NCBI GenBank assembly: GCA_963663235.2
Contig: CAXXNO010000004.1
Coordinates: 132,515-196,514, forward strand
Reading direction: 5' to 3'
DNA length: 64,000 nt
DNA from: Dehalococcoidia bacterium
GTDB taxonomy: Bacteria > Chloroflexota > Dehalococcoidia > Bin125
In this document: positions 3,507 through 50,674 of the stretch, one piece after another
Position numbering within the stretch: position 1 is the stretch's first letter
Layout: each line of letters starts with the position of its first letter
Program-made: the position numbers and the translations under genes
The notes under the pieces: model-generated
What the model saw: the letters and a program-made list of their open reading frames with translations, nothing else
Told to the model about the DNA's origin: nothing
The model's database searches: none

Positions 3507-4379
3507 TCAGGCCCGCGGGTACTCGTAGACGCCGCGGCCACTCTTGCGACCGAGCCAGCCGGCCTCGACGTAGCGCCGCACGATAGTCGGCGGGACCAGA
3601 CGCGGGTCGCGCAGCTCGTCGTACATGCTCTCCGCCACGTCGATGAGCACGTCGAGGCCGATGAGGTCGGCGGTGGCCAGCGGTCCCATGGCGTGGCTGA
3701 AGCCCAGGTGGCAGGCGTTATCGATGTCTTCCGCCGTGGCCACGCCGGACTCGAGCAAGCGGAGCGCGTCCAGCACGAAGGGGACCAGCAGGCGGTTGGA
3801 GATAAAGCCGGGCGTGTCCTTGGCGCGCACGGGCGTCTTCTCCAGGCTGCGCACGAACCTCTCGGCCAATTCCACGGCGTCGGGGTCGGCGGTGTAGGGC
3901 ACGACGATCTCCACCAGGGGCAGCACCGGCGCCGGATTGAAGAAGTGCAGGCCCAATACCCGCTGGGGCGTCTGCGTCGCGCCGGCCAGGTTCTGGAGGG
4001 AGAGCGAGGACGTATTGCTGGCCAGCAGCCGCGCCGCGGGGCAAGCCTTATCCAGCTCCTCAAAGATGCGGCGCTTGAGATCGAGGCGCTCGCTGGCCGC
4101 CTCGATCACGACGTCGGCGTGAGCCAGGTCGCCTAGATCCGTGCTGCCGCGCAGACGGGCGAGGGCGGCGTCGCGGTCGGCGGCGCCCATGCGGTCACGC
4201 TGCACCAGCCGCTCCAGCCCGCGCGTGGCCGAGGCGATTCCCTTCTGGATCAGCGCGTCGTCGACATCCCGCAGCACCACGGCGTAGCCGCGCTGCACCG
4301 CGACCTGCGCGATTCCGGCGCCCATGGTCCCGGCGCCGACGACGGCGACCGTCTTGATCTCGGATAGCGCTGCGCTCAT
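3507..4379 (-). CDS. 3-hydroxyacyl-CoA / 3-hydroxybutyryl-CoA dehydrogenase
   Basis: Rossmann motif VAVVGAGTMGAGIA. Also ASNTSSLS, LGLHFFNPAPV and PGFISNRLL, and a C-terminal GRKSGRGVYEY, typical of the Hbd/FadB C-terminal family. Confidence 0.93.
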   Translation of the reverse strand: MSAALSEIKTVAVVGAGTMGAGIAQVAVQRGYAVVLRDVDDALIQKGIASATRGLERLVQRDRMGAADRDAALARLRGSTDLGDLAHADVVIEAASERLDLKRRIFEELDKACPAARLLASNTSSLSLQNLAGATQTPQRVLGLHFFNPAPVLPLVEIVVPYTADPDAVELAERFVRSLEKTPVRAKDTPGFISNRLLVPFVLDALRLLESGVATAEDIDNACHLGFSHAMGPLATADLIGLDVLIDVAESMYDELRDPRLVPPTIVRRYVEAGWLGRKSGRGVYEYPRA

Positions 4380-4412: not shown

Positions 4413-5816
4413 TCAGGAAGCGGGCTCGCCCACCCCCTCCGGGATCGTGACCTCCGGATGCTGCGCCAGCGCGTCCCAGATAATCGCGCGGATGGCATCG
4501 TAGCGGTCGCGGCTCTGGGCCTCGATACGGACGGAGAGCACCGGGCCGGTGTTGGAGGCGCGCACCAGCGCCCAACCGTCGTCGAAGTCTATGCGCGCGC
4601 CGTCGATCTCCATGACGGAATAGAGGTCGCGGAAGTGCGCCGTGATCTCCGCGGCCACGCGAAACTTGGCCCGATCCGGGCAGGGCAGCTTCAGTTCCGG
4701 CGAGGTCACAAACGCGCGCAGCCCCTGGAAATGCGCCGAGAGGGGCTGGTCATCGGCCGCGAGCATGCGAGCGAACAGGCAGGCGGCGAAGACCGCGTCG
4801 TCGAGGCCGTAGTAGTCCTCGGCAAAGTAGTAGTGCGCGCTGCCTTCCCCCCCGAGGAGGATCCCCTCGTCGCGCATCTTGCGCTTCCCGAGGGAGTGCC
4901 CCGTTGGGGCGAAGACGGGAACGCCGCCCCGCGAGCGGATGTCGTCGACCGCGGTGAGCGAGGTCTTGACGTCCACCAGCACGCGCTCGCCGGGACGCCG
5001 CGCGAGCAGATCACGGGCCAGCACCGCCAGGATCTCGTCCGCCTGGTAGCGGACGCCGCGCTCGTTTACTAAGCCGAAGCGATCGCCGTCGCCGTCCCAG
5101 GCGACGCCGAGGTCGGCGCCATGTTGGAGCACGGCCGCGCGGAGCGCCGTCATCGTTTCCGCCACCTGGGGATCGGGCAGGTGATGGGGGAAGGTGCCGT
5201 CCAACTCGGCAAAGAGCTCGACCACGTCACAGCCGATGCGTCGCAACGCCTCCGGGCCCGTCAGGGTCGCGACGGCGTTGCCGGCGTCCGTGACCACTTT
5301 GATGCGCCGGGGCAAGGCAAAGCGTCGCGTGAGGAGATCCCAATACTCCGGCTTGGCGTCGCGCTCGCTGAGGGCGCCCCGGCCGCCCTCGAAATCGTCG
5401 CCCTGGGCGATCTCGCGCACCCGCTGGATCTCATCGGGGGCCAGGGGAATGCCGCGTCGCTCCAGCAGCTTCATGCCGTTCATATGGGTCGGATTGTGGC
5501 TGCCGGTCACGCTGACGCCGCCATCGAGGCCCCAGTGCGCGGCGGCGAAATAGAGCAGGGGCGAAGGCGCCAGCCCGATATCGACGACCGAAACGCCCGC
5601 GGCGCGCACACCCTCGACGAAGCCATCGCGCAGCGCCACCGAGGAAGGACGGTTGTCCCGCCCGGCGACGATCTCATGCACATCGTACTGGCGAACGAGG
5701 TAGGTGCCGTAGGCGCGGCCGATGCGCTCCGCCACCGCCGGTGTCAGATCGTCGCCCACTGTGCCGCGAATGTCGTAGGCACGGAACATCAAAGGGTTCA
5801 AAGTGATCGGTGGCAT
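4413..5816 (-). CDS. phosphomannomutase/phosphoglucomutase (alpha-D-phosphohexomutase)
   Basis: FRAYDIRG N-terminus, catalytic-Ser loop TGSHNP, metal loop DGDGDR, and GGEGSAHYYF. Confidence 0.93.
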   Translation of the reverse strand: MPPITLNPLMFRAYDIRGTVGDDLTPAVAERIGRAYGTYLVRQYDVHEIVAGRDNRPSSVALRDGFVEGVRAAGVSVVDIGLAPSPLLYFAAAHWGLDGGVSVTGSHNPTHMNGMKLLERRGIPLAPDEIQRVREIAQGDDFEGGRGALSERDAKPEYWDLLTRRFALPRRIKVVTDAGNAVATLTGPEALRRIGCDVVELFAELDGTFPHHLPDPQVAETMTALRAAVLQHGADLGVAWDGDGDRFGLVNERGVRYQADEILAVLARDLLARRPGERVLVDVKTSLTAVDDIRSRGGVPVFAPTGHSLGKRKMRDEGILLGGEGSAHYYFAEDYYGLDDAVFAACLFARMLAADDQPLSAHFQGLRAFVTSPELKLPCPDRAKFRVAAEITAHFRDLYSVMEIDGARIDFDDGWALVRASNTGPVLSVRIEAQSRDRYDAIRAIIWDALAQHPEVTIPEGVGEPAS

Positions 5817-5873: not shown

Positions 5874-7286
5874 CTATCCTCCCGAGGGCGCCGGTTCGCC
5901 GAAGTCCGGCGGCAGCGTCACCTCGGGATGCTCGGCCACCATCTGGAAGACGCGCGATCGGATCGCCTCGTAGCGGTCGCGATCTTCCGCCTCCATCCGG
6001 ATCGAGAGGACCGGATTGGTGTTTGAGGCGCGCACGAGGGCCCAGCCATCGCCGAAGTCGATGCGCGTGCCGTCTGCATCGACGGCGACGGCGGCGGCGC
6101 GCAGGCGCTCCGTGATCGCCGCCGCGACGCGGAACTTGGCCTCGTCCGCGCAGGGCAGCATGATCTCGGGGGAGGTGACCAAGCGCTGCATGCCGGCGAG
6201 ATGCGCGGAGAGCGGCCGGCTCTCCGCCGCCAGGATCTTGGCGGCCGCGCAGGCCGCGTACACGCCGTCGTCGATGCCGTAGTAGTCCTCCGCGAAGACG
6301 ATGTGGCCGCTGGCCTCGCCGCCGAAGAGGATCTTCTCCGCCTCAATGCGCCGGCGGAGCAGCGAATATCCGGTTGGAGTCAGCACCGGCTCGCCGCCGT
6401 GGGCGCGGACGTCCCGGATGGCGCTGAGCGAGGTCTTGGCATCGAGCAAGATGCGCGCACCAGGATGGCGCGTGAGCACGTCGCGCGCGAGCAGGGCCAC
6501 GAGCCAGTCCGCGTCATAGCGGACGCCCCGCTCGTCCACCATGCCGACGCGGTCGCCGTCGCCGTCCCACGCGAAGCCCACATCGGCGGCGTGCTCTTGG
6601 ACCGCCGCGCACAACTGCACCATGGTCTGCGGATCCTGCGGGTTCGGCACGTGGTTGGGGAACCCCTCCAGCAACTCCGTGTACAGCCCGATCACGTCAC
6701 AGCCGATCCGCCGCAGCGCCTCCGGCCCAGTCAGCGTGGCGACGCCGTTGCCAGGATCGGCGACCACCGTGAGGGGGCGGGCGAGACGAAAGCGCTCAGC
6801 CAGGAGCGCCAGGTATTCGGGTTTGGGATCGCGCTCGTCCAGGGCGCCGCGACCGTGGTCGAGATCGCCCGACTCGGCCAGCCGCCGGACCTCCTGGATC
6901 TCCTCGGGCAGCAGCGCCGACGCCCCGCGCTGCACGAGCTTGGCGCCGTTGAACTCGATCGGGTTGTGGCTGGCCGTGACATTCACCGCACCGTCCAGCC
7001 CCCAGGCCGCCGCGGCGAAACCGACGACCGGGCTCGGACTCAGCCCCACGGCAGTGACATCGACCCCAGCGCCCCGCGCTCCCGCGATCAGGGCGTCGTA
7101 GAGCGCGGGCGACGAGGGGCGGCTATCGCGGCCGACCGCGATGCGCCGGCCGTCGAATCGTCGTCGCAGATAGGTGGCGAACGCCGCTCCGAGTCGCTCG
7201 GCGACCGCAGGCGTGAACTCCTCAGCGGCGATCCCGCGGATGTCGTAGGCCCGGAAGATATGAGGATCGAGGGCGAGGTCCGGCAT
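5874..7286 (-). CDS. phosphomannomutase/phosphoglucomutase, tandem paralog
   Basis: Same motif set (FRAYDIRG, TASHNP, DGDGDR, GGEASGHIVF). The start is moved to ATG 7286 (MPDLALDPHIFRAYDIRG), because the upstream 24 codons of the tracked ORF look non-coding. Confidence 0.9.
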   Translation of the reverse strand: MPDLALDPHIFRAYDIRGIAAEEFTPAVAERLGAAFATYLRRRFDGRRIAVGRDSRPSSPALYDALIAGARGAGVDVTAVGLSPSPVVGFAAAAWGLDGAVNVTASHNPIEFNGAKLVQRGASALLPEEIQEVRRLAESGDLDHGRGALDERDPKPEYLALLAERFRLARPLTVVADPGNGVATLTGPEALRRIGCDVIGLYTELLEGFPNHVPNPQDPQTMVQLCAAVQEHAADVGFAWDGDGDRVGMVDERGVRYDADWLVALLARDVLTRHPGARILLDAKTSLSAIRDVRAHGGEPVLTPTGYSLLRRRIEAEKILFGGEASGHIVFAEDYYGIDDGVYAACAAAKILAAESRPLSAHLAGMQRLVTSPEIMLPCADEAKFRVAAAITERLRAAAVAVDADGTRIDFGDGWALVRASNTNPVLSIRMEAEDRDRYEAIRSRVFQMVAEHPEVTLPPDFGEPAPSGG

Positions 7287-7373
7287 CTGGATCCATGCTA
7301 ACCGGGCCGTAGCCGCTGCCATAGCGCACGCGCGACACGCGCCGAATCCGCCGGGCAACGCCGCGGGGGCTGA

Positions 7374-27115: not shown

Positions 27116-28141
27116 GTGACGCTGCGCAGCGGGACCGCAGTGCGATGGGCGATCGTCGGGGCGGCATGCGCGCTGGCGGCGCTGGCCGCGGGCTGCGGAG
27201 GCGAGGCCGCAACGGACGGGGAGAGCGCGTCGCGCGCCGTCGTGGAGCCGGCGGTCGAGATGGCGGCGATCGAAGAGGTGGCGGCAGAGCCGGAAGTGGC
27301 GGCCCCCGAACCGCCCCCAGCGGAACCGCGCGCAGCCGATGACCCAGCGCCGAGGAGCGAGGCGCCGCGCCGACCGGTGGTTGTGCTGGACCCCGGACAC
27401 GGGGGCACCGACGTGGGCGCGATGGCGCACGGGGTCACGGAGAAGCATTCCAACCTGGCGATGGCGCTGCGCATCAAAGCGCTGCTGGAGGCGGCGGGCA
27501 TTGACGTGGTACTGACGCGTGAGAGCGACGAGCGGCTGGCGGAGGCGCCATTGGAGACGGAGCTGCCGCGGTTCGCACGGTTCGCGGCCAATCGGGCGGA
27601 CCTGCAAGCGCGAGTCGATCTGGCCAACGGCGCAGAGGCCGACCTGCTCGTGGCGATCCATTCGAACGGGCATCCGGAGGGAAACGTGCGGGGGGTGGAA
27701 GCGTGGTACGACCCCACCCGGCCGTTCGCGGACGAGAACCTGCGCATCGCCGAGTTGTTGATCGCGCACGTGATCACGGAGTTGGGAGCGTTCGGATATG
27801 CGGCGTTCGATCGGGGGGCGCTGGACGACACCTGCTGGCGATCGTTCGAGGGGAACTGCTTTGCGCTGTTCATGCTGGGCCCGCCGCGCGTGATGCAGCG
27901 CGAGCGGCTGGAGGACTTCGGCATCGATCCGGCGGTGCTCGGGTTCGCCCCCGACCAGGAGACGCTGGTCACGCGCGCGACGCAGATGCCCGGCGCGCTG
28001 GTGGAGCTGCTCTTCATCTCGAACGAAGCGGACGCCGCCGTCCTGCACAGTGATGCCGGGCAGGAGGCCCTGGCCCGAGGGGTCGCGGGGGCGGTTCTCG
28101 CCTATTTCAACATTGAACCGACTGAGGGCGAGCCGGACTGA
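27116..28141 (+). CDS. N-acetylmuramoyl-L-alanine amidase (Amidase_3) lipoprotein
   Basis: Lipobox LAALAAGCGG. Also VVVLDPGHGGTDVGA, SNLAMALRIK, HSNG and a C-terminal LFISNEADA. Confidence 0.9.
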   Translation: MTLRSGTAVRWAIVGAACALAALAAGCGGEAATDGESASRAVVEPAVEMAAIEEVAAEPEVAAPEPPPAEPRAADDPAPRSEAPRRPVVVLDPGHGGTDVGAMAHGVTEKHSNLAMALRIKALLEAAGIDVVLTRESDERLAEAPLETELPRFARFAANRADLQARVDLANGAEADLLVAIHSNGHPEGNVRGVEAWYDPTRPFADENLRIAELLIAHVITELGAFGYAAFDRGALDDTCWRSFEGNCFALFMLGPPRVMQRERLEDFGIDPAVLGFAPDQETLVTRATQMPGALVELLFISNEADAAVLHSDAGQEALARGVAGAVLAYFNIEPTEGEPD

Positions 28142-28852: not shown

Positions 28853-29496
28853 GCATCGCTCCTTGTCATTTTTCATTGCCGCGGGCTGCGGAGGCGACTC
28901 CGCGGCGGACGGGGAGAGCGCATCCCCCGCCGACTCTGCGACGGCGCGCGAGGCTAGAACGGCGGCGGGCACCGTTCAGCATTTGTTTCGATGATGAATC
29001 ATACAGCGTCATCCGGGGACGAGGGCACGTCGATCATGGCTGTTCGAGGCGGAGCTCGTAGGCGACGGTGACGGCGGGCGCGGCCACAGCGGTGTGGGGT
29101 CAATCGGGCGAGGGGTGTCACGGCGGGGAAGGTTGAGCGGATGGGCGCGGAGGGCATCGTGGGGTCCGGCCCGGAAGGGAACGGGTTTTCTGTCACCCCG
29201 CGCGAGGCGCGCCGCATCTGGTGGAGCAGGGCGAAGGCGCGTCGGAGGGGGCGGAAAGGGACAGAAAGGGACGGCAGCCGACGCGGGCCGGACACGGATC
29301 GGACGGGGCGTGGACGTCGATCGGACAGGGGGGCGGCACGGCGTCGCAGCCGGGGGCCGCGCGCGAGGCCGTGCAGGAGGGCGCGGACCCGATCGTCGGT
29401 GGGGGGAGGGACGGAGAGCAGGGGATCGCGACACTCGAACATGTGTTCTATTATAGCGGACCCGGGGTGCTCTGTGAAATGGGCAGCCGGAGGGGG

Positions 29497-29985: not shown

Positions 29986-29995
29986 GGGTGATCCT

Positions 29996-30153
29996 CCTTC
30001 GATCCTTCGACAAGCCTTCGACCTCGCTCAGGCCAGGGCTCAGGACAGGTTTGCTCAGGATACGCGGGGGGAGGGGGAACCTCACCCTTCCGCTGTGCGA
30101 AGGGCGCAAGCGCCCCCTGGCCCTCCTTCGACTCGCCTGCGGCTCGCTCAGGA
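29996..30153. repeat. REP/MITE-like intergenic repeat (type A core plus degenerate ccttcgac / ctcgctcagg units)
   Basis: 30078-30153 (aacctcacccttccgctgtgcgaagggcgcaagcgccccctggccctccttcgactcgcctgcggctcgctcagga) recurs almost exactly at 34921, 35081, 35935 and 36095. Confidence 0.85.
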
Positions 30154-30170
30154 GAGGGGGAGAAGAAGGG

Positions 30171-34452: not shown

Positions 34453-34812
34453 GTGGAGGTCAGCGAGCTGACGGTGATGGTTGGGAGCGAGCAACCCGAG
34501 CGGCTGGCGGCGTTCTATCGCGACGCGCTGGGGCTGCCGCTGCTGCCCGAATTTCACGACCCGGTCTTCCGCGTCGGCGGGGCGAAGGTGCGGATCATCC
34601 GCCACTCGGCGGTGGAGGGACGGAACCGAGAGCCGGCGCGGGTGCAGATCAACCTGTTCGTGGAGGACGTGCGGGCGGAGTGGGAGCGGCTGACGGCGCT
34701 GGGGGTGCCGTTCGCGCGGGAGCCGGAGCGGGAGGGGTGGGGCGGGGTGGTGGCGACGATGGAGGACCCGGACGGGAACTACGTGCAGATCATCGAGCAG
34801 GTGCGAGGCTAG
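34453..34812 (+). CDS. VOC-family (glyoxalase/bleomycin-resistance fold) protein
   Basis: AAFYRDALGLP.., C-terminal GGVVATMEDPDGNYVQIIE. Confidence 0.8.
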   Translation: MEVSELTVMVGSEQPERLAAFYRDALGLPLLPEFHDPVFRVGGAKVRIIRHSAVEGRNREPARVQINLFVEDVRAEWERLTALGVPFAREPEREGWGGVVATMEDPDGNYVQIIEQVRG

Positions 34813-34826
34813 GGGGGCTGTCGGCG

Positions 34827-35205
34827 GACCTCACCCGCCTCTCCCCCTCTCCATCGGCAAGCGATGGAGAGGGGGAGAGGCGGGTCGGGCGGGGAGGGGG
34901 CATTCGGCGTCGGGCGGGGAGAGCTCACCCTTCCGCTGTGCGAAGGGCGCAAGCGCCCCCTGGCCTCCTCCATAGGTGGGGAACGAACCTCACCCGCCTC
35001 TCCCCCCTCTCCATCGGCAAGCGATGGAGAGGGGGGAGAGGCGGGTCGGCCGGCGAGGGGGCGTTCGGCGTCGGGCGGGGAGACCTCACCCTTCCGCTGT
35101 GCGAAGGGCGCAAGCGCCCCCTGGCCTCCTTCGACTCGCCTGCGGCTCGCTCAGGACAGGCCCTCTCCATCCTTCTCAGGAGGGAAGGATGGAGAGGGGG
35201 GAGAA
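34827..35205. repeat. composite REP/MITE-like array B-A-B-A (left flank of higBA)
   Basis: B units contain a perfect 23-24-bp stem (cccgcctctccccctctccatcg / cgatggagagggggagaggcggg, loop gcaag; 34834-34884 and about 35000-35052). A units contain cctcacccttccgctgtgcgaagggcgcaagcgccccctggcc. Confidence 0.9.
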
Positions 35206-35295
35206 GGGTCGGACATCGAGGGGCTCAGGGCAGGCAAGGCGAGCGGAGCAGGGGGGAGGAGCGATCTGTAGGGCGGGCGGCGGTCGTCTGCTCAA

Positions 35296-35318
35296 GAGTG
35301 ATATTGATACAATCACTC
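35296..35318. promoter_or_regulatory. candidate higBA operator/promoter (GAGTGAT-N9-ATCACTC overlapping TTGATA)
   Basis: A 7-bp inverted repeat sits in an AT-richer patch 22 bp upstream of the higB start. TTGATA is at 35304-35309, and a weak -10 (tagtct) lies about 18 nt downstream. Confidence 0.4.
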
Positions 35319-35339
35319 CATCACACCTAGTCTGCTTAG

Positions 35340-35633
35340 GTGGAGGTTGAGTACCGCAGCAGGTCTCTGGCGAGGCGGGGCGCCGATGAGCGGGAGGCCG
35401 CGAAGGCGTGGGGTGTGTCTGTTGCGCGCAAATACATCCAGCGCTTGCAGATCATCGCCGCGGCACCGACGTGGGAAGCCCTGCGGTCGTACCGCGCTCT
35501 GGGCCTTCATCCGCTCAAAGGTACGCGCCGGGGGGAGTACGCGATGACGTTGACGGGTCGTTGGCGGCTGATCGTGCGGCCTGAGGGCGAGACGGTTTGG
35601 ATCGAGGAGGTATCACAGCACTATGGCGATTAA
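35340..35633 (+). CDS. higB: type II toxin, HigB / plasmid-maintenance-killer (RelE/ParE superfamily)
   Basis: GTG start. ..YIQRLQIIAAAPTWEALRSYRALGLHPLKGTRRGEYAMTLTGRWRLIV.. matches the HigB pattern. It overlaps the downstream antitoxin gene by 11 nt. Confidence 0.85.
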   Translation: MEVEYRSRSLARRGADEREAAKAWGVSVARKYIQRLQIIAAAPTWEALRSYRALGLHPLKGTRRGEYAMTLTGRWRLIVRPEGETVWIEEVSQHYGD

Positions 35634-35925
35634 CCGGACCCAGATTGCGGAACTGCCGATCCCGCCGGGGGAGCTGCTTGCCGAGGAGTTGGAGGCGCGA
35701 GCGATGACGCAAAAGGCGCTTGCGGAGGCGATGGGGCGACCGGCCAAGGTGATCAACGAGATCATCAGCGGTAAGAAGGCGATCACCGCCGAGACGGCGC
35801 TGCAGCTGGAGCGAGTACTCGGGACCGACGCGACGACGTGGGTGCGACTCGAGGCGGACTATCAGCTCCGCAAGGCGAGGCGCGCGGCGGAGGAGCGGGA
35901 AAGGGCGGCGGCTACGGGAGCCTGA
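35623..35925 (+). CDS. higA: type II antitoxin HigA (XRE-type HTH)
   Basis: PIPPGELLAEELEARAMTQKALAEAMGRPAKVINEIISGKKAITAETALQLERVLG is the canonical HigA/VapI HTH. Confidence 0.9.
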   Translation: MAINRTQIAELPIPPGELLAEELEARAMTQKALAEAMGRPAKVINEIISGKKAITAETALQLERVLGTDATTWVRLEADYQLRKARRAAEERERAAATGA

Positions 35926-35934
35926 GGCGGGCGC

Positions 35935-36205
35935 AACCTCACCCTTCCGCTGTGCGAAGGGCGCAAGCGCCCCCTGGCCCCCTTCATAGGTGGGGAACGA
36001 ACCTCACCCGCCTCTCCCCCCTCTCCATCGGCAAGCGATGGAGAGGGGGGAGAGGCGGGTCGGGCGGCGAGGGGCGCTCGGCGTCGGGCGGGGAGACCTC
36101 ACCCTTCCGCTGTGCGAAGGGCGCAAGCGCCCCCTGGCCTCCTTCGACTCGCCTGCGGCTCGCTCAGGACGGGCCCTCTCCATCGGCGAGCGATGGAGAG
36201 GGGTG
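35935..36205. repeat. composite REP/MITE-like array A-B-A (right flank of higBA)
   Basis: By eye it aligns with 34921-35205 with only scattered mismatches over about 270 bp. It begins 10 nt after the higA stop and ends just before the stop of the convergent methyltransferase gene. Confidence 0.9.
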
Positions 36206-36212
36206 GAGGCCG

Positions 36213-36812
36213 CTAGGCGGGCTTGCGAGCCAAGAGGTGGGCGAGGGGGCGTTCGGCGTCGGACGGGTCTTCGCGGAAGAGGATGGGGTCGAGGGTGGGG
36301 AAGAGGGCAGGGAGCTCGCCGCGGTTGAGCACGTACTCCTTGTGGACGGGGGGCGGGCCGGTTCCGCCTTCGACCATGGTGACGAAGAGCAGCAGGCCGC
36401 CGGGGGCGAGGACGGCCTCGATCTGGGGGGCGAGGTTGCGCTGGAGGTAGAGGGTGTTGACGACGAGGTCGTAGGGGCCGCGGAGGAGGGGCGCCTGCTC
36501 GAGGTCGCGGCAGAGGGTGGCAATAGGCAGGCGCTCTTTGCGGGCGCGGGCGGCGATGTGGTCGCAGGCGACCTGCGAGGCGTCGATGGCGAGGAGGGCG
36601 AGGCCGCGGCGGGCGAGCCAGAAGGCGTTGCGGCCGAGGCCGGCGGCGATGGCGAGGGCGGCGCCGGTGGCGGGGAGTTGGTCGGCGACTTCGAGGAGGA
36701 AGGGGTGGGGGGCGTCGTCGGGGGGGCCTTGGGCCAGGGCGGCGCGGTGGCGGGCGTCCCAGTCGGGGGAGGGGGGCGACGGTTCATCGCCAGCGGGGCA
36801 GTCGCGCGCCAT
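36213..36812 (-). CDS. class I SAM-dependent methyltransferase
   Basis: Motif I AALAIAAGLGRNAFWLARRG, then LLAIDAS and a post-I acidic residue, with the PGGLLLF motif. Confidence 0.85.
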   Translation of the reverse strand: MARDCPAGDEPSPPSPDWDARHRAALAQGPPDDAPHPFLLEVADQLPATGAALAIAAGLGRNAFWLARRGLALLAIDASQVACDHIAARARKERLPIATLCRDLEQAPLLRGPYDLVVNTLYLQRNLAPQIEAVLAPGGLLLFVTMVEGGTGPPPVHKEYVLNRGELPALFPTLDPILFREDPSDAERPLAHLLARKPA

Positions 36813-36826
36813 CCAGAAGAGCCGTG

Positions 36827-37645
36827 CTAGCCGCTTGGCGCGGGTTGTTCGATGACGGCGAAGTCGGACTGGTCGAGGTCACTGAGCTCGCCCTTGCGGT
36901 AGGCGTCGTAGAGGTGGAAGAGCTCGGTCTTGTGGGGGCGCTTGCGGCCGAGGGGGCAGGCCTGCCAGGCGTCGTAGTCCTCGTCGCAGTAGCCCATGCG
37001 CAGCTCGCCACACTTGGGCTGGAGGTAGCGGCCGAGCTCGGGGACAGCGCGGACGACCTCGGCGCGCATGAGGGCGGCGACCTTGCGGAACTCCCATTGG
37101 GCGCGGGTGCAGAGTCGCTGGTCGCAGATGTGGAGGAGCTCGAGGAAGTTCACGCTGATCTTGAAGTTGGTGTTAGTGGCGTTGGGGAGGACGAAGCGGG
37201 CGTCCTCGGTGGGGACGCCGGCCTCGACCATGCGGCGGTAGAGGTCGCCGGTGGAGCCGAAGTGCTCGCGCATCTCGTCGGCGAAGCCGGCGCCGTCGAC
37301 GGTGGCGGGGACGGTGAAGGGGAAGGTGCCGTCCTTGTAGGTGACGTAGCGCTGGCTCTGCTGCTCGAAGGAGATGCCGATGCGGTGGCGGACGAACTGG
37401 TGGCTGAAGGCGCGGGAGACGCCGCTGATGCCGAACTCGAACCAGACCTGCTCGAGAGGCGAGGAATGGCCGGTCTTGAGTCGCTCGGCGACGAACTCCT
37501 GCATCTTCTGGGGCGCGATGCGCTCATCCGCGACGCGCTCCAGCACCTGCTGGGGCGTGAGCGTCGAGTAGCAGACGCGGTAGGCCATGTAGAGAGCGCG
37601 GATGGGATCCTTGGTGTGTTCGATCAGCGTGACTTGAATCGGCAC
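36827..37645 (-). CDS. thyX: FAD-dependent thymidylate synthase
   Basis: ThyX signature RHRIGISFEQQSQRY. GTG start with GGGAGAG SD. Confidence 0.95.
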   Translation of the reverse strand: MPIQVTLIEHTKDPIRALYMAYRVCYSTLTPQQVLERVADERIAPQKMQEFVAERLKTGHSSPLEQVWFEFGISGVSRAFSHQFVRHRIGISFEQQSQRYVTYKDGTFPFTVPATVDGAGFADEMREHFGSTGDLYRRMVEAGVPTEDARFVLPNATNTNFKISVNFLELLHICDQRLCTRAQWEFRKVAALMRAEVVRAVPELGRYLQPKCGELRMGYCDEDYDAWQACPLGRKRPHKTELFHLYDAYRKGELSDLDQSDFAVIEQPAPSG

Positions 37646-45090: not shown

Positions 45091-45133
45091 CCCCAGCCGC
45101 CCGTCGCTCTCTCCCCAGCGGTCCATTCCGGCC

Positions 45134-45179
45134 GTCCCTGTCGCCGTCCTCGCACGTCCCTGTCGCCGTCCCTGTCGCT
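45134..45179. repeat. three copies of gtccctgtcgc(c/t)
   Basis: Copies at 45134-45145, 45156-45167 and 45168-45179 (the last two in tandem), directly upstream of the palindrome. Confidence 0.8.
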
Positions 45180-45182
45180 GTC

Positions 45183-45229
45183 CGTGCACGTCCCGACGCC
45201 CGGCTCTGCCGGGCGTCGGGACGTGCACG
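45183..45229. terminator. perfect 47-nt palindrome (22-bp stem, 3-nt loop), a terminator or attenuator candidate between the regulator operon and flbD
   Basis: cgtgcacgtcccgacgcccggc-tct-gccgggcgtcgggacgtgcacg. No U-tract follows. Confidence 0.45.
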
Positions 45230-49835: not shown

Positions 49836-50674
49836 AGACGGCGAAACCGATGTGGTTGATCGCCGGGGTCGCCGGGGTGGGGATCGGCGTGCTGGTGGTG
49901 GGGCCGGCGGCGCGCCTGGGCGAGGGGGGGGATGCGCTCTTCGCCGAGCCGCCCGATGCGGGCGAACTGGAGGAACTGGGCACGATTGGAGGCGCGAGCG
50001 CGGCGGCGGCGCCGGCCGACACGGCGGCCGACACGGCGGCCGACACGGCGGCCGACACGGCGGCCAGTGGGAGTGACGCGGCCGAGGCGGGGGAGATTGT
50101 CGGACGCAACGTGTCCTCGTTCGACGCAGGGGACATTTTCGGGCTGCTGTGGCGGCTGGCGCTGGTGGGCGGGATCATCTACGCCTCCATTTTCCTGCTG
50201 CGCAAGTTCGTGAATCGCAGCAGCCGGTTCCGCAGCGACTCGGGCGCGCTGCAGGTGCTGGAGACGATCGGCCTGGGGAGCAACCGGCTGGTGTCGCTGG
50301 TGGAGGCCGGCGATCGCATCCTGGTGGTGGGGAGCGCGCCCAACCAGGTGACCCTGCTGGCGGAGTTGAGCGATCCGGAGGTGGTGGCGGGGCTGCGCGG
50401 CAGCGCGGACCAGAGCAGTCCGGGCGTCGCCACGCTGGGCGAGATGATGCGCAAGTTCGGGCAGAGCGCCGTGCAGCGCGTCGTCACGCGCGACGTCACC
50501 AGCGACGTCACCGGCGACGCCGCGAGCCAGCCGGCGGAACGGCTGGACGTGCGGGCGCTGACGCCGGTCCTTGAGCGGCTGATGGAAACGCAGGCGGCGA
50601 TTGCGAAGCAGTCGGAGCGGCTGCAGGCCCAGGGCGACACGGTCGCCACCCCGGCGCGATCGGAAGCGGAGTGA
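49832..50674 (+). CDS. fliO: flagellar biosynthesis protein FliO/FliZ with extended repeat-containing N-terminus
   Basis: ATGA overlap with fliN. The TM plus conserved core reads [25 protein letters not shown]...[40 protein letters not shown]. Confidence 0.85.
50015..50062 (+). repeat. perfect 12-bp x4 tandem repeat (gccgacacggcg) encoding (ADTA)4 inside fliO
   Basis: Read directly from the sequence; it is in frame. Confidence 0.95.

Follow-up and report, generated by a model that had tools for sequence, protein, structure and literature searches.

The intergenic region at positions 34827-36205 of a 64,000-nt stretch of a Dehalococcoidia bacterium genome (Chloroflexota; Bin125; assembly GCA_963663235.2, contig CAXXNO010000004.1, positions 132,515-196,514 of the forward strand; hereafter the window) carries a toxin-antitoxin (TA) gene pair, higBA, between two nearly identical blocks of direct repeats. 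On balance we consider it probable that higBA was acquired at a conserved convergent gene junction that serves as an insertion hotspot, within a recombining mosaic of repeats that is largely of local making and resembles the bacterial interspersed mosaic elements (BIMEs). The locus is a clear and fairly ordinary case of accessory DNA that collects in a repeat-rich insertion hotspot, and not a new kind of system.

According to this reading, a type II higBA module would have been acquired in the lineage at the point where thyX and a methyltransferase gene converge with a glyoxalase gene, a junction that is a clade-wide hotspot for accessory DNA. The mosaic around it has two components. One is a low-copy, dispersed unit, A-long, with a terminal CCCTCTCCATC hairpin, and the other consists of local B units, which are degenerate duplicates of the hairpin at the methyltransferase stop together with ~60 nt of the 3' end of that gene. 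The B stem would have grown as its 3' flank was mirror-copied, starting at 12 bp and reaching 24-25 bp, or 32 bp in a single strain. Unequal homologous recombination, or else slippage during replication, between direct repeats of 46-250 nt would make the array expand and, for the most part, contract.

The repeat array and the enclosed higBA genes

The layout of the array was established by direct reading of 34500-36900 in combination with a repeat finder (Table 1). The left block (34827-35205) has the order B-A-B-A plus a hairpin and the right block (35935-36205) the order A-B-A plus a hairpin, with all units in direct orientation; this is the unit order that had been read in a preliminary description of the region. 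The segments 34924-35171 and 35938-36184 form a direct repeat of 248 nt with 97.6% identity (5 mismatches and 1 gap), which agrees with the scattered mismatches that were noticed at first sight. Each of the three B hairpins is a perfect palindrome with GCAAG as its loop, in line with the earlier description, which gave one example. Folded as single-stranded DNA, the B unit reaches -44 kcal/mol (z = -8.0 relative to shuffled sequences), whereas the A core alone does not form a significant hairpin in the same comparison (z = -0.4). Given the latter value, the earlier term 'composite hairpin repeat' suits B and the shorter CCCTCTCCATC hairpins C' and C'', each of which closes a copy of A-long, but it does not suit A. 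The 43-nt A core was found five times in the window at no more than one mismatch, where 0 copies are expected, with four copies at the locus and one at 30080-30122. Between the two blocks there is only ~90 nt of unique sequence, a candidate operator/promoter palindrome, higB and higA, as the preliminary description had it. The repeats also generate open reading frames (ORFs) of 216 and 330 codons (34680-35330 and 35838-36830), which had been suspected to be spurious. Neither has a Pfam match, public gene calls place no gene there, and in annotation they should not be called genes.

The assignment of the gene pair to higBA, already made in the preliminary description, is supported by the fact that HigA scores above the curated cut-off of TIGR02607 (69.7 bits against 47.7) and that the toxin gene lies upstream. 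HigA also matched the structures of HigA, GraA and VapI in the PDB at 5.6e-11 to 5e-8. The toxin-first order on one strand and the overlap of 11 nt between higB and higA, in which the public gene calls concur, are consistent with HigBA. The matches of the predicted toxin are weak but specific: HigB aligned with Proteus vulgaris HigB of the PDB (E = 0.004) over the LHPLKG...WR motif, and its homologs at 43-54% identity carry the source names killer protein or proteic killer suppression protein, while the NCBIfam profile search returned no match. The GC content of higBA is 0.63-0.66, against 0.70-0.75 for the flanks.

The palindrome AGTGAT-N9-ATCACT upstream of higB is unchanged in five of six strains and overlaps an extended -10-like element, TGATACAAT. 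Consensus scans of 34700-36400 for sigma-70 promoters and intrinsic terminators yielded 0 sites. Considering the empty promoter scan, the two elements are put forward only as candidates for a HigA operator and a higBA promoter; if so, HigA might regulate its own expression via the palindrome. The hairpins, in turn, may separate the convergent operons and the TA promoter from one another, as terminators or insulators.

Table 1. Features of the higBA junction and of the second A-long locus (positions in the window)
Feature	Position	Strand	Remarks
A-long, second locus	30064-30160	+	Terminal hairpin without its 5' arm; abuts the stop of an amidase gene; 98.6% identity over 74 nt
Glyoxalase/VOC-family gene	34453-34812	+	Pfam PF00903, 1.2e-15; left core flank; ends the conserved ChsH2-MBL-glyoxalase block
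B1 hairpin	34833-34885	.	24-bp perfect stem (34833-34856/34862-34885); 20 nt past the glyoxalase stop
Spacer 1	34891-34918	+	Degenerate copy of the methyltransferase gene's native 3' end; 93% in the repeat finder
A-short, left	34923-34986	+	A core followed by the tail TCCTCCATAGGTGGGGAACGAAC
B2 hairpin	34992-35046	.	25-bp perfect stem (34992-35016/35022-35046); loop GCAAG; fold z = -8.0
Spacer 2	35052-35079	+	Copy of the methyltransferase 3' end, 27/28 nt
A-long, left	35084-35160	+	A core plus TTCGACTCGCCTGCGGCTCGCTCAGGAC; dispersed element
C' hairpin	35161-35198	.	15-17-bp stem; strain-variable loop, TCTCAGGAGG vs TCCCCGGTGG
Palindrome AGTGAT-N9-ATCACT	35297-35317	+	Overlaps the extended -10-like TGATACAAT at 35305-35313; read directly
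higB, predicted toxin, 97 aa	35340-35633	+	PF05015, 22.1 bits; PDB P. vulgaris HigB; public gene call identical
higA, antitoxin, 100 aa, HTH-XRE	35623-35925	+	TIGR02607; PDB HigA/GraA/VapI
A-short, right	35937-36000	+	Begins 11 nt past the higA stop
B3 hairpin	36006-36060	.	25-bp perfect stem (36006-36030/36036-36060); loop GCAAG
Spacer 3	36065-36092	+	Copy of the methyltransferase 3' end, 79%, one indel
A-long, right	36097-36173	+	From A-core search and alignment
C'' hairpin	36174-36203	.	12-bp stem with GCGAG as loop; methyltransferase stop at a distance of 10 nt
SAM-dependent methyltransferase gene	36213-36812	-	Pfam; right core flank; C-terminus conserved in relatives

Origin of the B units and variation among strains

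The 28-nt spacers that follow the B hairpins match 36240-36267 at 79-96%. This segment lies within the methyltransferase gene, encodes PSDAERPLA and is the template of the three spacers; a 25-nt core probe recovered two of the three spacers and the gene itself, where 0 matches are expected by chance. The C-terminal sequence REDPxD..RPxAxLLAR(K/R)P is conserved in the methyltransferases of the related loci L004, L008, L012 and L015, and therefore the spacers were copied from the gene. Moreover, each B unit is collinear with the C'' hairpin, the stop region and the end of the methyltransferase gene, and the units have internal deletions in common, which implies that a single duplicate gave rise to all three. 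In the B stem, the outer arm (GAGAGGCGGGT) aligns with the region of the stop codon and the 5' arm is its exact mirror. L004 and L101 have a hairpin related to C'' at this junction, and C'' is likely the ancestral hairpin of the junction. Since the B units carry the 3' end of the neighbouring methyltransferase gene, the array seems to have been built largely on the spot and B not to have arrived as a MITE (miniature inverted-repeat transposable element); the earlier suggestion of a MITE-like insertion is not supported for these units.

The apparent growth of the stem fits a stepwise extension of the palindrome by template switching. Quasipalindrome correction by template switching gives the so-called Ripley-type mutations. 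The resemblance is that the arms of the B stem are exact mirrors of the 3' flank and that strain L097 adds a mirror extension of 7 bp together with clustered substitutions in the 5' flank. The process would differ in that a natural intergenic hairpin has been lengthened repeatedly across the stop region of a gene, as judged from the alignments. In L097 (3372-3440) the B stem measures 32 bp and the 5' flank now reads GCCGGCCGACCCGCC, so that it mirrors the 3' flank exactly.

Seven same-species contigs were read; all comparison sequences were metagenome-assembled, with L003 and L084 among those at 2-3x coverage. HigBA occupies this site in all seven. The array is polymorphic for a unit of 160/161 bp, composed of A tail, B, spacer and A head, which is present or absent on each side of the TA genes. 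All four combinations occur: long on both sides (window), long on the left and short on the right (L001 and L084), short on the left and long on the right (L097) and short on both sides (L002 and L003). The identity to the window is 99.99% over 20 kb for L001 and ~99% for L002 and L003. Direct copies of A-long flank higBA in every strain, and in L002 and L003 the bracket is made up of only ~90-100 nt of A-long. The near-identical bracket of ~270 bp that drew attention to the region is thus real in the window, but it is a strain-specific state.

The units within one genome differ by 2.4-5%, which is far above the differences between the strains. It follows that the long forms have existed for a long time, and independent deletions are the best account of the short ones. 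A recent gain of the right-hand unit in the window, as strain parsimony would have it, was dropped as a candidate, for its divergence from the left-hand unit is 2.4%, against 0.01-1% between the strains. The short-left junctions are also different: in L097 the junction falls within the B hairpin, where a B1-type stem is joined to a B2-type 3' flank, and in L002 and L003 it falls within the spacer. Breakpoints that vary in this way within homologous stretches speak for unequal recombination or slippage and not for a site-specific transposase. New insertions were not seen in any strain over 20 kb. The direct repeats could delete higBA and yet it is kept in all contigs, which fits addiction of the kind shown for superintegron TA loci (PMC5543033); toxin addiction may select against repeat-mediated deletion of the pair. 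A separate observation concerns the tip of C' (window 35161-35198, L002/L003 9822-9859), where strains that are ~99% identical differ by three substitutions in 8 nt (TCTCAGGAGG vs TCCCCGGTGG), which turn a T-G wobble into C-G and alter the loop.

The junction in relatives and competing explanations

A comparison of loci on the basis of ThyX, encoded by a further gene on the methyltransferase side (Pfam), placed the window within the Chloroflexota, among metagenome-assembled genomes labelled Dehalococcoidia or Tepidiformaceae, with a best ThyX identity of 81%; the nearest non-self methyltransferase is 67% identical. More than 40 relatives keep the synteny thyX-(methyltransferase)-glyoxalase, and none of them has higBA between the methyltransferase and glyoxalase genes; the longer order thyX-(methyltransferase)-glyoxalase-MBL-ChsH2 is conserved in dozens. 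Despite this conservation, HigB and HigA are absent from L004-L083, so the search for an empty site, proposed at the outset, led to sites that are empty or filled differently, none of them with higBA. The methyltransferase and glyoxalase genes of L012 and L015 are separated by 14-20 bp. In the closest relative, L004, the gap measures 252 bp and holds a B-like hairpin (AACCTCACCCC...CCCTCTCCATCGGTGAGCGATGGCGAGGG) and TTCGAC/CTCAGGA motifs, and no TA genes. From thyX to glyoxalase the distance in the relatives ranges from 7 to 2909 bp, and in different genomes the junction contains a PIN-toxin pair, an HTH_3 plus Peptidase_M78 gene with a partner, and IS30-like and IS5-like transposases. The variable length and the varied inserts identify the junction as an insertion hotspot, and the sequence comparison supports the view that higBA is accessory DNA specific to the lineage and lies in an intergenic site rich in repeats. 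The junction inserts are located at L004 9064-10825, L019 8846-9657, L018 8964-10070, L074 9391-10407, L053 8899-9849 and L083 9060-10091. A second B-like hairpin in L004 (16445-16479), CCCCCTCTCCATCGCTCGGCCATGGAGAGGGGG, is followed by GGGGGTGAGGT, the mirror arrangement of ACCTCACCC plus hairpin.

Homologs of higBA without A elements were recovered in L085 and L103. In the latter, the methyltransferase of which is 63% identical, they reside in the neighbouring gap between thyX and the methyltransferase gene (HigA 66% and HigB 45% identical) and are flanked by a different repeat (...TCCTGAGCCTGTCGAAGG...), which indicates that the TA genes are not tied to the A and B repeats. L103 has three copies of CTTCGGCTCCGTCCATCCTGAGCCTGTCGAAGG adjoining CCCCCTCCCCTACCCTCCCCCC (1500-1800 and 3880-3920), a different family of intergenic repeats in which the motif TCCTGAGC...GTCGAAGG nevertheless recurs, as in the A-long tail when the latter is read on the opposite strand.

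The number of repeat copies was determined for ~73.5 kb of this genome, that is, the window and 9.5 kb beyond its left side. Within this sequence A-long is the only unit that is demonstrably dispersed, with its second locus at 30.1 kb, and neither the remainder of the window nor the adjoining 9.5 kb yielded further copies of the repeats. The pattern TTCGAC-N(2-30)-CTCAGGA has 5 matches in the window, where 0.16 are expected, all of them at the two repeat loci. When six-frame peptides of the repeat were compared with a protein collection, one match was obtained (P0011), a spurious ORF that represents a translated A-long plus hairpin on another contig. The preliminary description saw an array similar to repetitive extragenic palindromic (REP) or MITE sequences. 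The dispersal of A supports it, but two loci in ~73.5 kb are far below REP densities, and the high copy number expected of such a family was not reached in that sequence. An exact 25-mer of the A core had 0 matches in the GTDB species genomes and 0 in the JGI metagenomes. The hairpin core CCCTCTCCATCG-N5-CGATGGAGAGGG, on the other hand, is present in 10 JGI contigs with a GC content of 0.52-0.70, several of which have ACCTCACCC in front of it. B-type cores thus exist in unrelated metagenome contigs, and the B hairpin belongs to a wide class of CCTCACCC/CCCTCTCC palindromes that has not been described before. Directly upstream of the second A-long copy (29990-30060) there are stacked TTCGAC and CTCAGG(A/C) motifs.

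The dispersal of A-long raises the question of whether the repeats carried the genes. In such a scenario A-long would be a MITE- or REP-like element, served by a transposase in trans, that brought in higBA as A-higBA-A, after which the array grew by further insertions. The 98.6% identity of the copy at 30064-30160, the translated A-long plus hairpin of P0011, the direct A-long copies on both sides of higBA in every strain, the B-type cores that follow ACCTCACCC in diverse metagenome contigs and a terminal inverted match of 7 nt (ACCCTTC...GAAGGGT), the two sides of which pair when A-long plus C' is folded, all favour it. We nonetheless regard it as rather unlikely. The 7-nt complementarity is the only MITE feature of A-long plus hairpin, of which there are 3 copies at 2 loci, and a target-site duplication around the repeats was not recognised. 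A transposase, a REP-associated tyrosine transposase (RAYT/Y1) or an integrase was not found among the Pfam-annotated genes of the 20-kb neighbourhoods. There is no second copy of the cassette either, as HigB homologs above 54% identity are confined to this locus, and consequently nothing indicates that higBA was mobilised with the repeats, as had been proposed. To this are added the local gene sequence inside the B units, the breakpoints in homologous stretches without new insertions and the homologs in L085 and L103 that do without A elements. Capture of higBA by recombination between repeat units, the other option that had been raised, is possible.

A similarly low probability is assigned to Campbell-type integration, in which a small higBA circle with a copy of the hairpin and methyltransferase 3' end and/or A would have entered at the 3' end of the methyltransferase gene, leaving attL-like (B plus spacer) and attR-like (C'' plus true gene end) duplications that were amplified later. 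It would account for copies of the hairpin and methyltransferase 3' end on both sides of higBA in the order and orientation of the true junction, with the intact gene end on the right and truncated copies without the stop region on the left, and for a dip in GC content that is limited to the higBA segment. An integrase or recombinase is lacking in the insert and within ~10 kb, however, there are three pseudo-ends, one of which lies to the right of higBA, so that later amplification is needed anyway, and local tandem duplication followed by insertion yields an identical pattern. An att site at a tRNA gene was also considered and set aside, as no tRNA or transfer-messenger RNA was found. Rfam 15 gave 0 matches in the window at the gathering score and, at the E-value threshold, only sub-threshold look-alikes of microRNA hairpins. 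The third mobile scenario, an integron-type cassette with attC-like repeats as known for higBA-1 and higBA-2 of the Vibrio cholerae superintegron, has the superficial attraction that one TA family is found between structured direct repeats of ~100 nt, and TA cassettes of superintegrons are documented (PMC5543033). It was rejected on the core sites and has practically no probability left: 34800-36250 contains no RYYYAAC, the sole GTTRRRY falls within the beginning of higB, the stems of B are perfect and have no extrahelical bases, and there is neither an integrase nor a cassette array, the neighbours being conserved housekeeping genes.

Finally, the variation in unit number might be an artefact, with tandem units of 160 bp being collapsed or expanded in assembly and the array itself static. 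The metagenomic origin and low coverage of some of the comparison sequences leave room for this, and the window and L001 have hardly any other differences. As a general explanation we deem it quite improbable, since the short alleles carry substitutions of their own (the 5' flank and 32-bp stem of L097, the C' loop of L002/L003), the junctions lie at different points and the short/short allele was obtained from two independent samples (L002 and L003).

Acquisition at the hotspot, within a largely local and recombining mosaic, keeps our preference, but several observations count against it or parts of it. The HigB score for PF05015 (22.1 bits) is under the 27-bit cut-off, and the hairpins, for which a role as terminators or insulators is proposed, have no T tract. 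The identity of the L103 HigA (66%) is close to that of the core neighbours (63-65%), and for this reason higBA may have been present before any recent acquisition and may have changed its place since. Some differences in unit number, especially that between the window and L001, could represent assembly collapse, although the other alleles have their own diagnostic substitutions. Seven contigs are also too few to demonstrate selection against the loss of higBA. A more far-reaching version, which we consider doubtful though less so than the mobile scenarios above, holds that the locus records the birth of a REP/BIME-like family: an ancestral terminator hairpin at the convergent junction copies the end of the methyltransferase gene, its stem grows step by step through template switching, it fuses with A into a unit of 160 bp, and this unit amplifies around a TA pair that anchors the array by addiction.

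Relation to known systems and other repeats in the window

The closest analogues are the BIME arrays of E. coli and those TA modules that occupy intergenic sites with REPs. In E. coli the number of BIME units varies between strains and the units may sequester gene fragments (Ton-Hoang et al. 2012, PMC3333891). Like BIME-2 and atypical BIME arrays, the present array is extragenic, situated at gene 3' ends and organised as a tandem mosaic around G+C-rich palindromes; the units at one locus are alike, their number is strain-variable and fragments of the flanking genes have been incorporated. The differences are that perfect palindromes of 24-32 bp take the place of imperfect REPs of 20-40 nt with a GTAG foot, that all units are direct, whereas REP and iREP alternate in E. 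coli, that A is not palindromic, and that the repeats are restricted to 2 loci in ~73.5 kb and no RAYT is found among the annotated genes of the neighbourhood.

As for the TA genes, ccdO157 was described in E. coli between the folA and apaH genes (Mine et al. 2009, as quoted by Delihas 2011, PMC3184786), and hicAB replaces a REPtron between yafL and fhiA (PMC3333891). These sites resemble the present one in that a solitary type II TA pair lies between conserved housekeeping genes in a plastic region, which in relatives is empty, contains palindromic repeats or has other inserts. There, TA genes and REPs are mostly alternative occupants, whereas here the TA pair lies inside the array, bracketed by direct repeats, and the host belongs to the Chloroflexota and has another repeat family. 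TA loci stabilise direct-repeat arrays (PMC5543033), and in the V. cholerae superintegron their prevention of repeat-mediated deletion has been demonstrated (Szekeres et al. 2007, as cited in PMC5543033).

If the preferred reading is right, the locus provides a clean natural example outside the Proteobacteria of convergent-gene junctions as landing pads for TA genes and insertion sequences. It would also imply that palindromic arrays can be built partly from local gene ends and not by transposition alone, and that they turn over between strains of 99-99.99% identity while the embedded addiction module stays fixed.

Some other repeats of the window deserve mention. A perfect stem of 22 bp with a 3-nt loop (CGTGCACGTCCCGACGCCCGGC / GCCGGGCGTCGGGACGTGCACG) is present at 45130-45229, after tandem GTCCCTGTCGCC-like units, and has no sequence relationship to A or B. 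At 50000-50065 a 12-nt unit, GCGGCCGACACG, is repeated in tandem in ~5 copies, and 27185-27259 and 28878-28952 form a direct repeat of 75 nt with 80% identity, 1.7 kb apart. On the minus strand, 4413-5816 and 5874-7358 are tandem paralogous genes of the phosphoglucomutase type with Pfam PGM_PMM domains and ~70% DNA identity.

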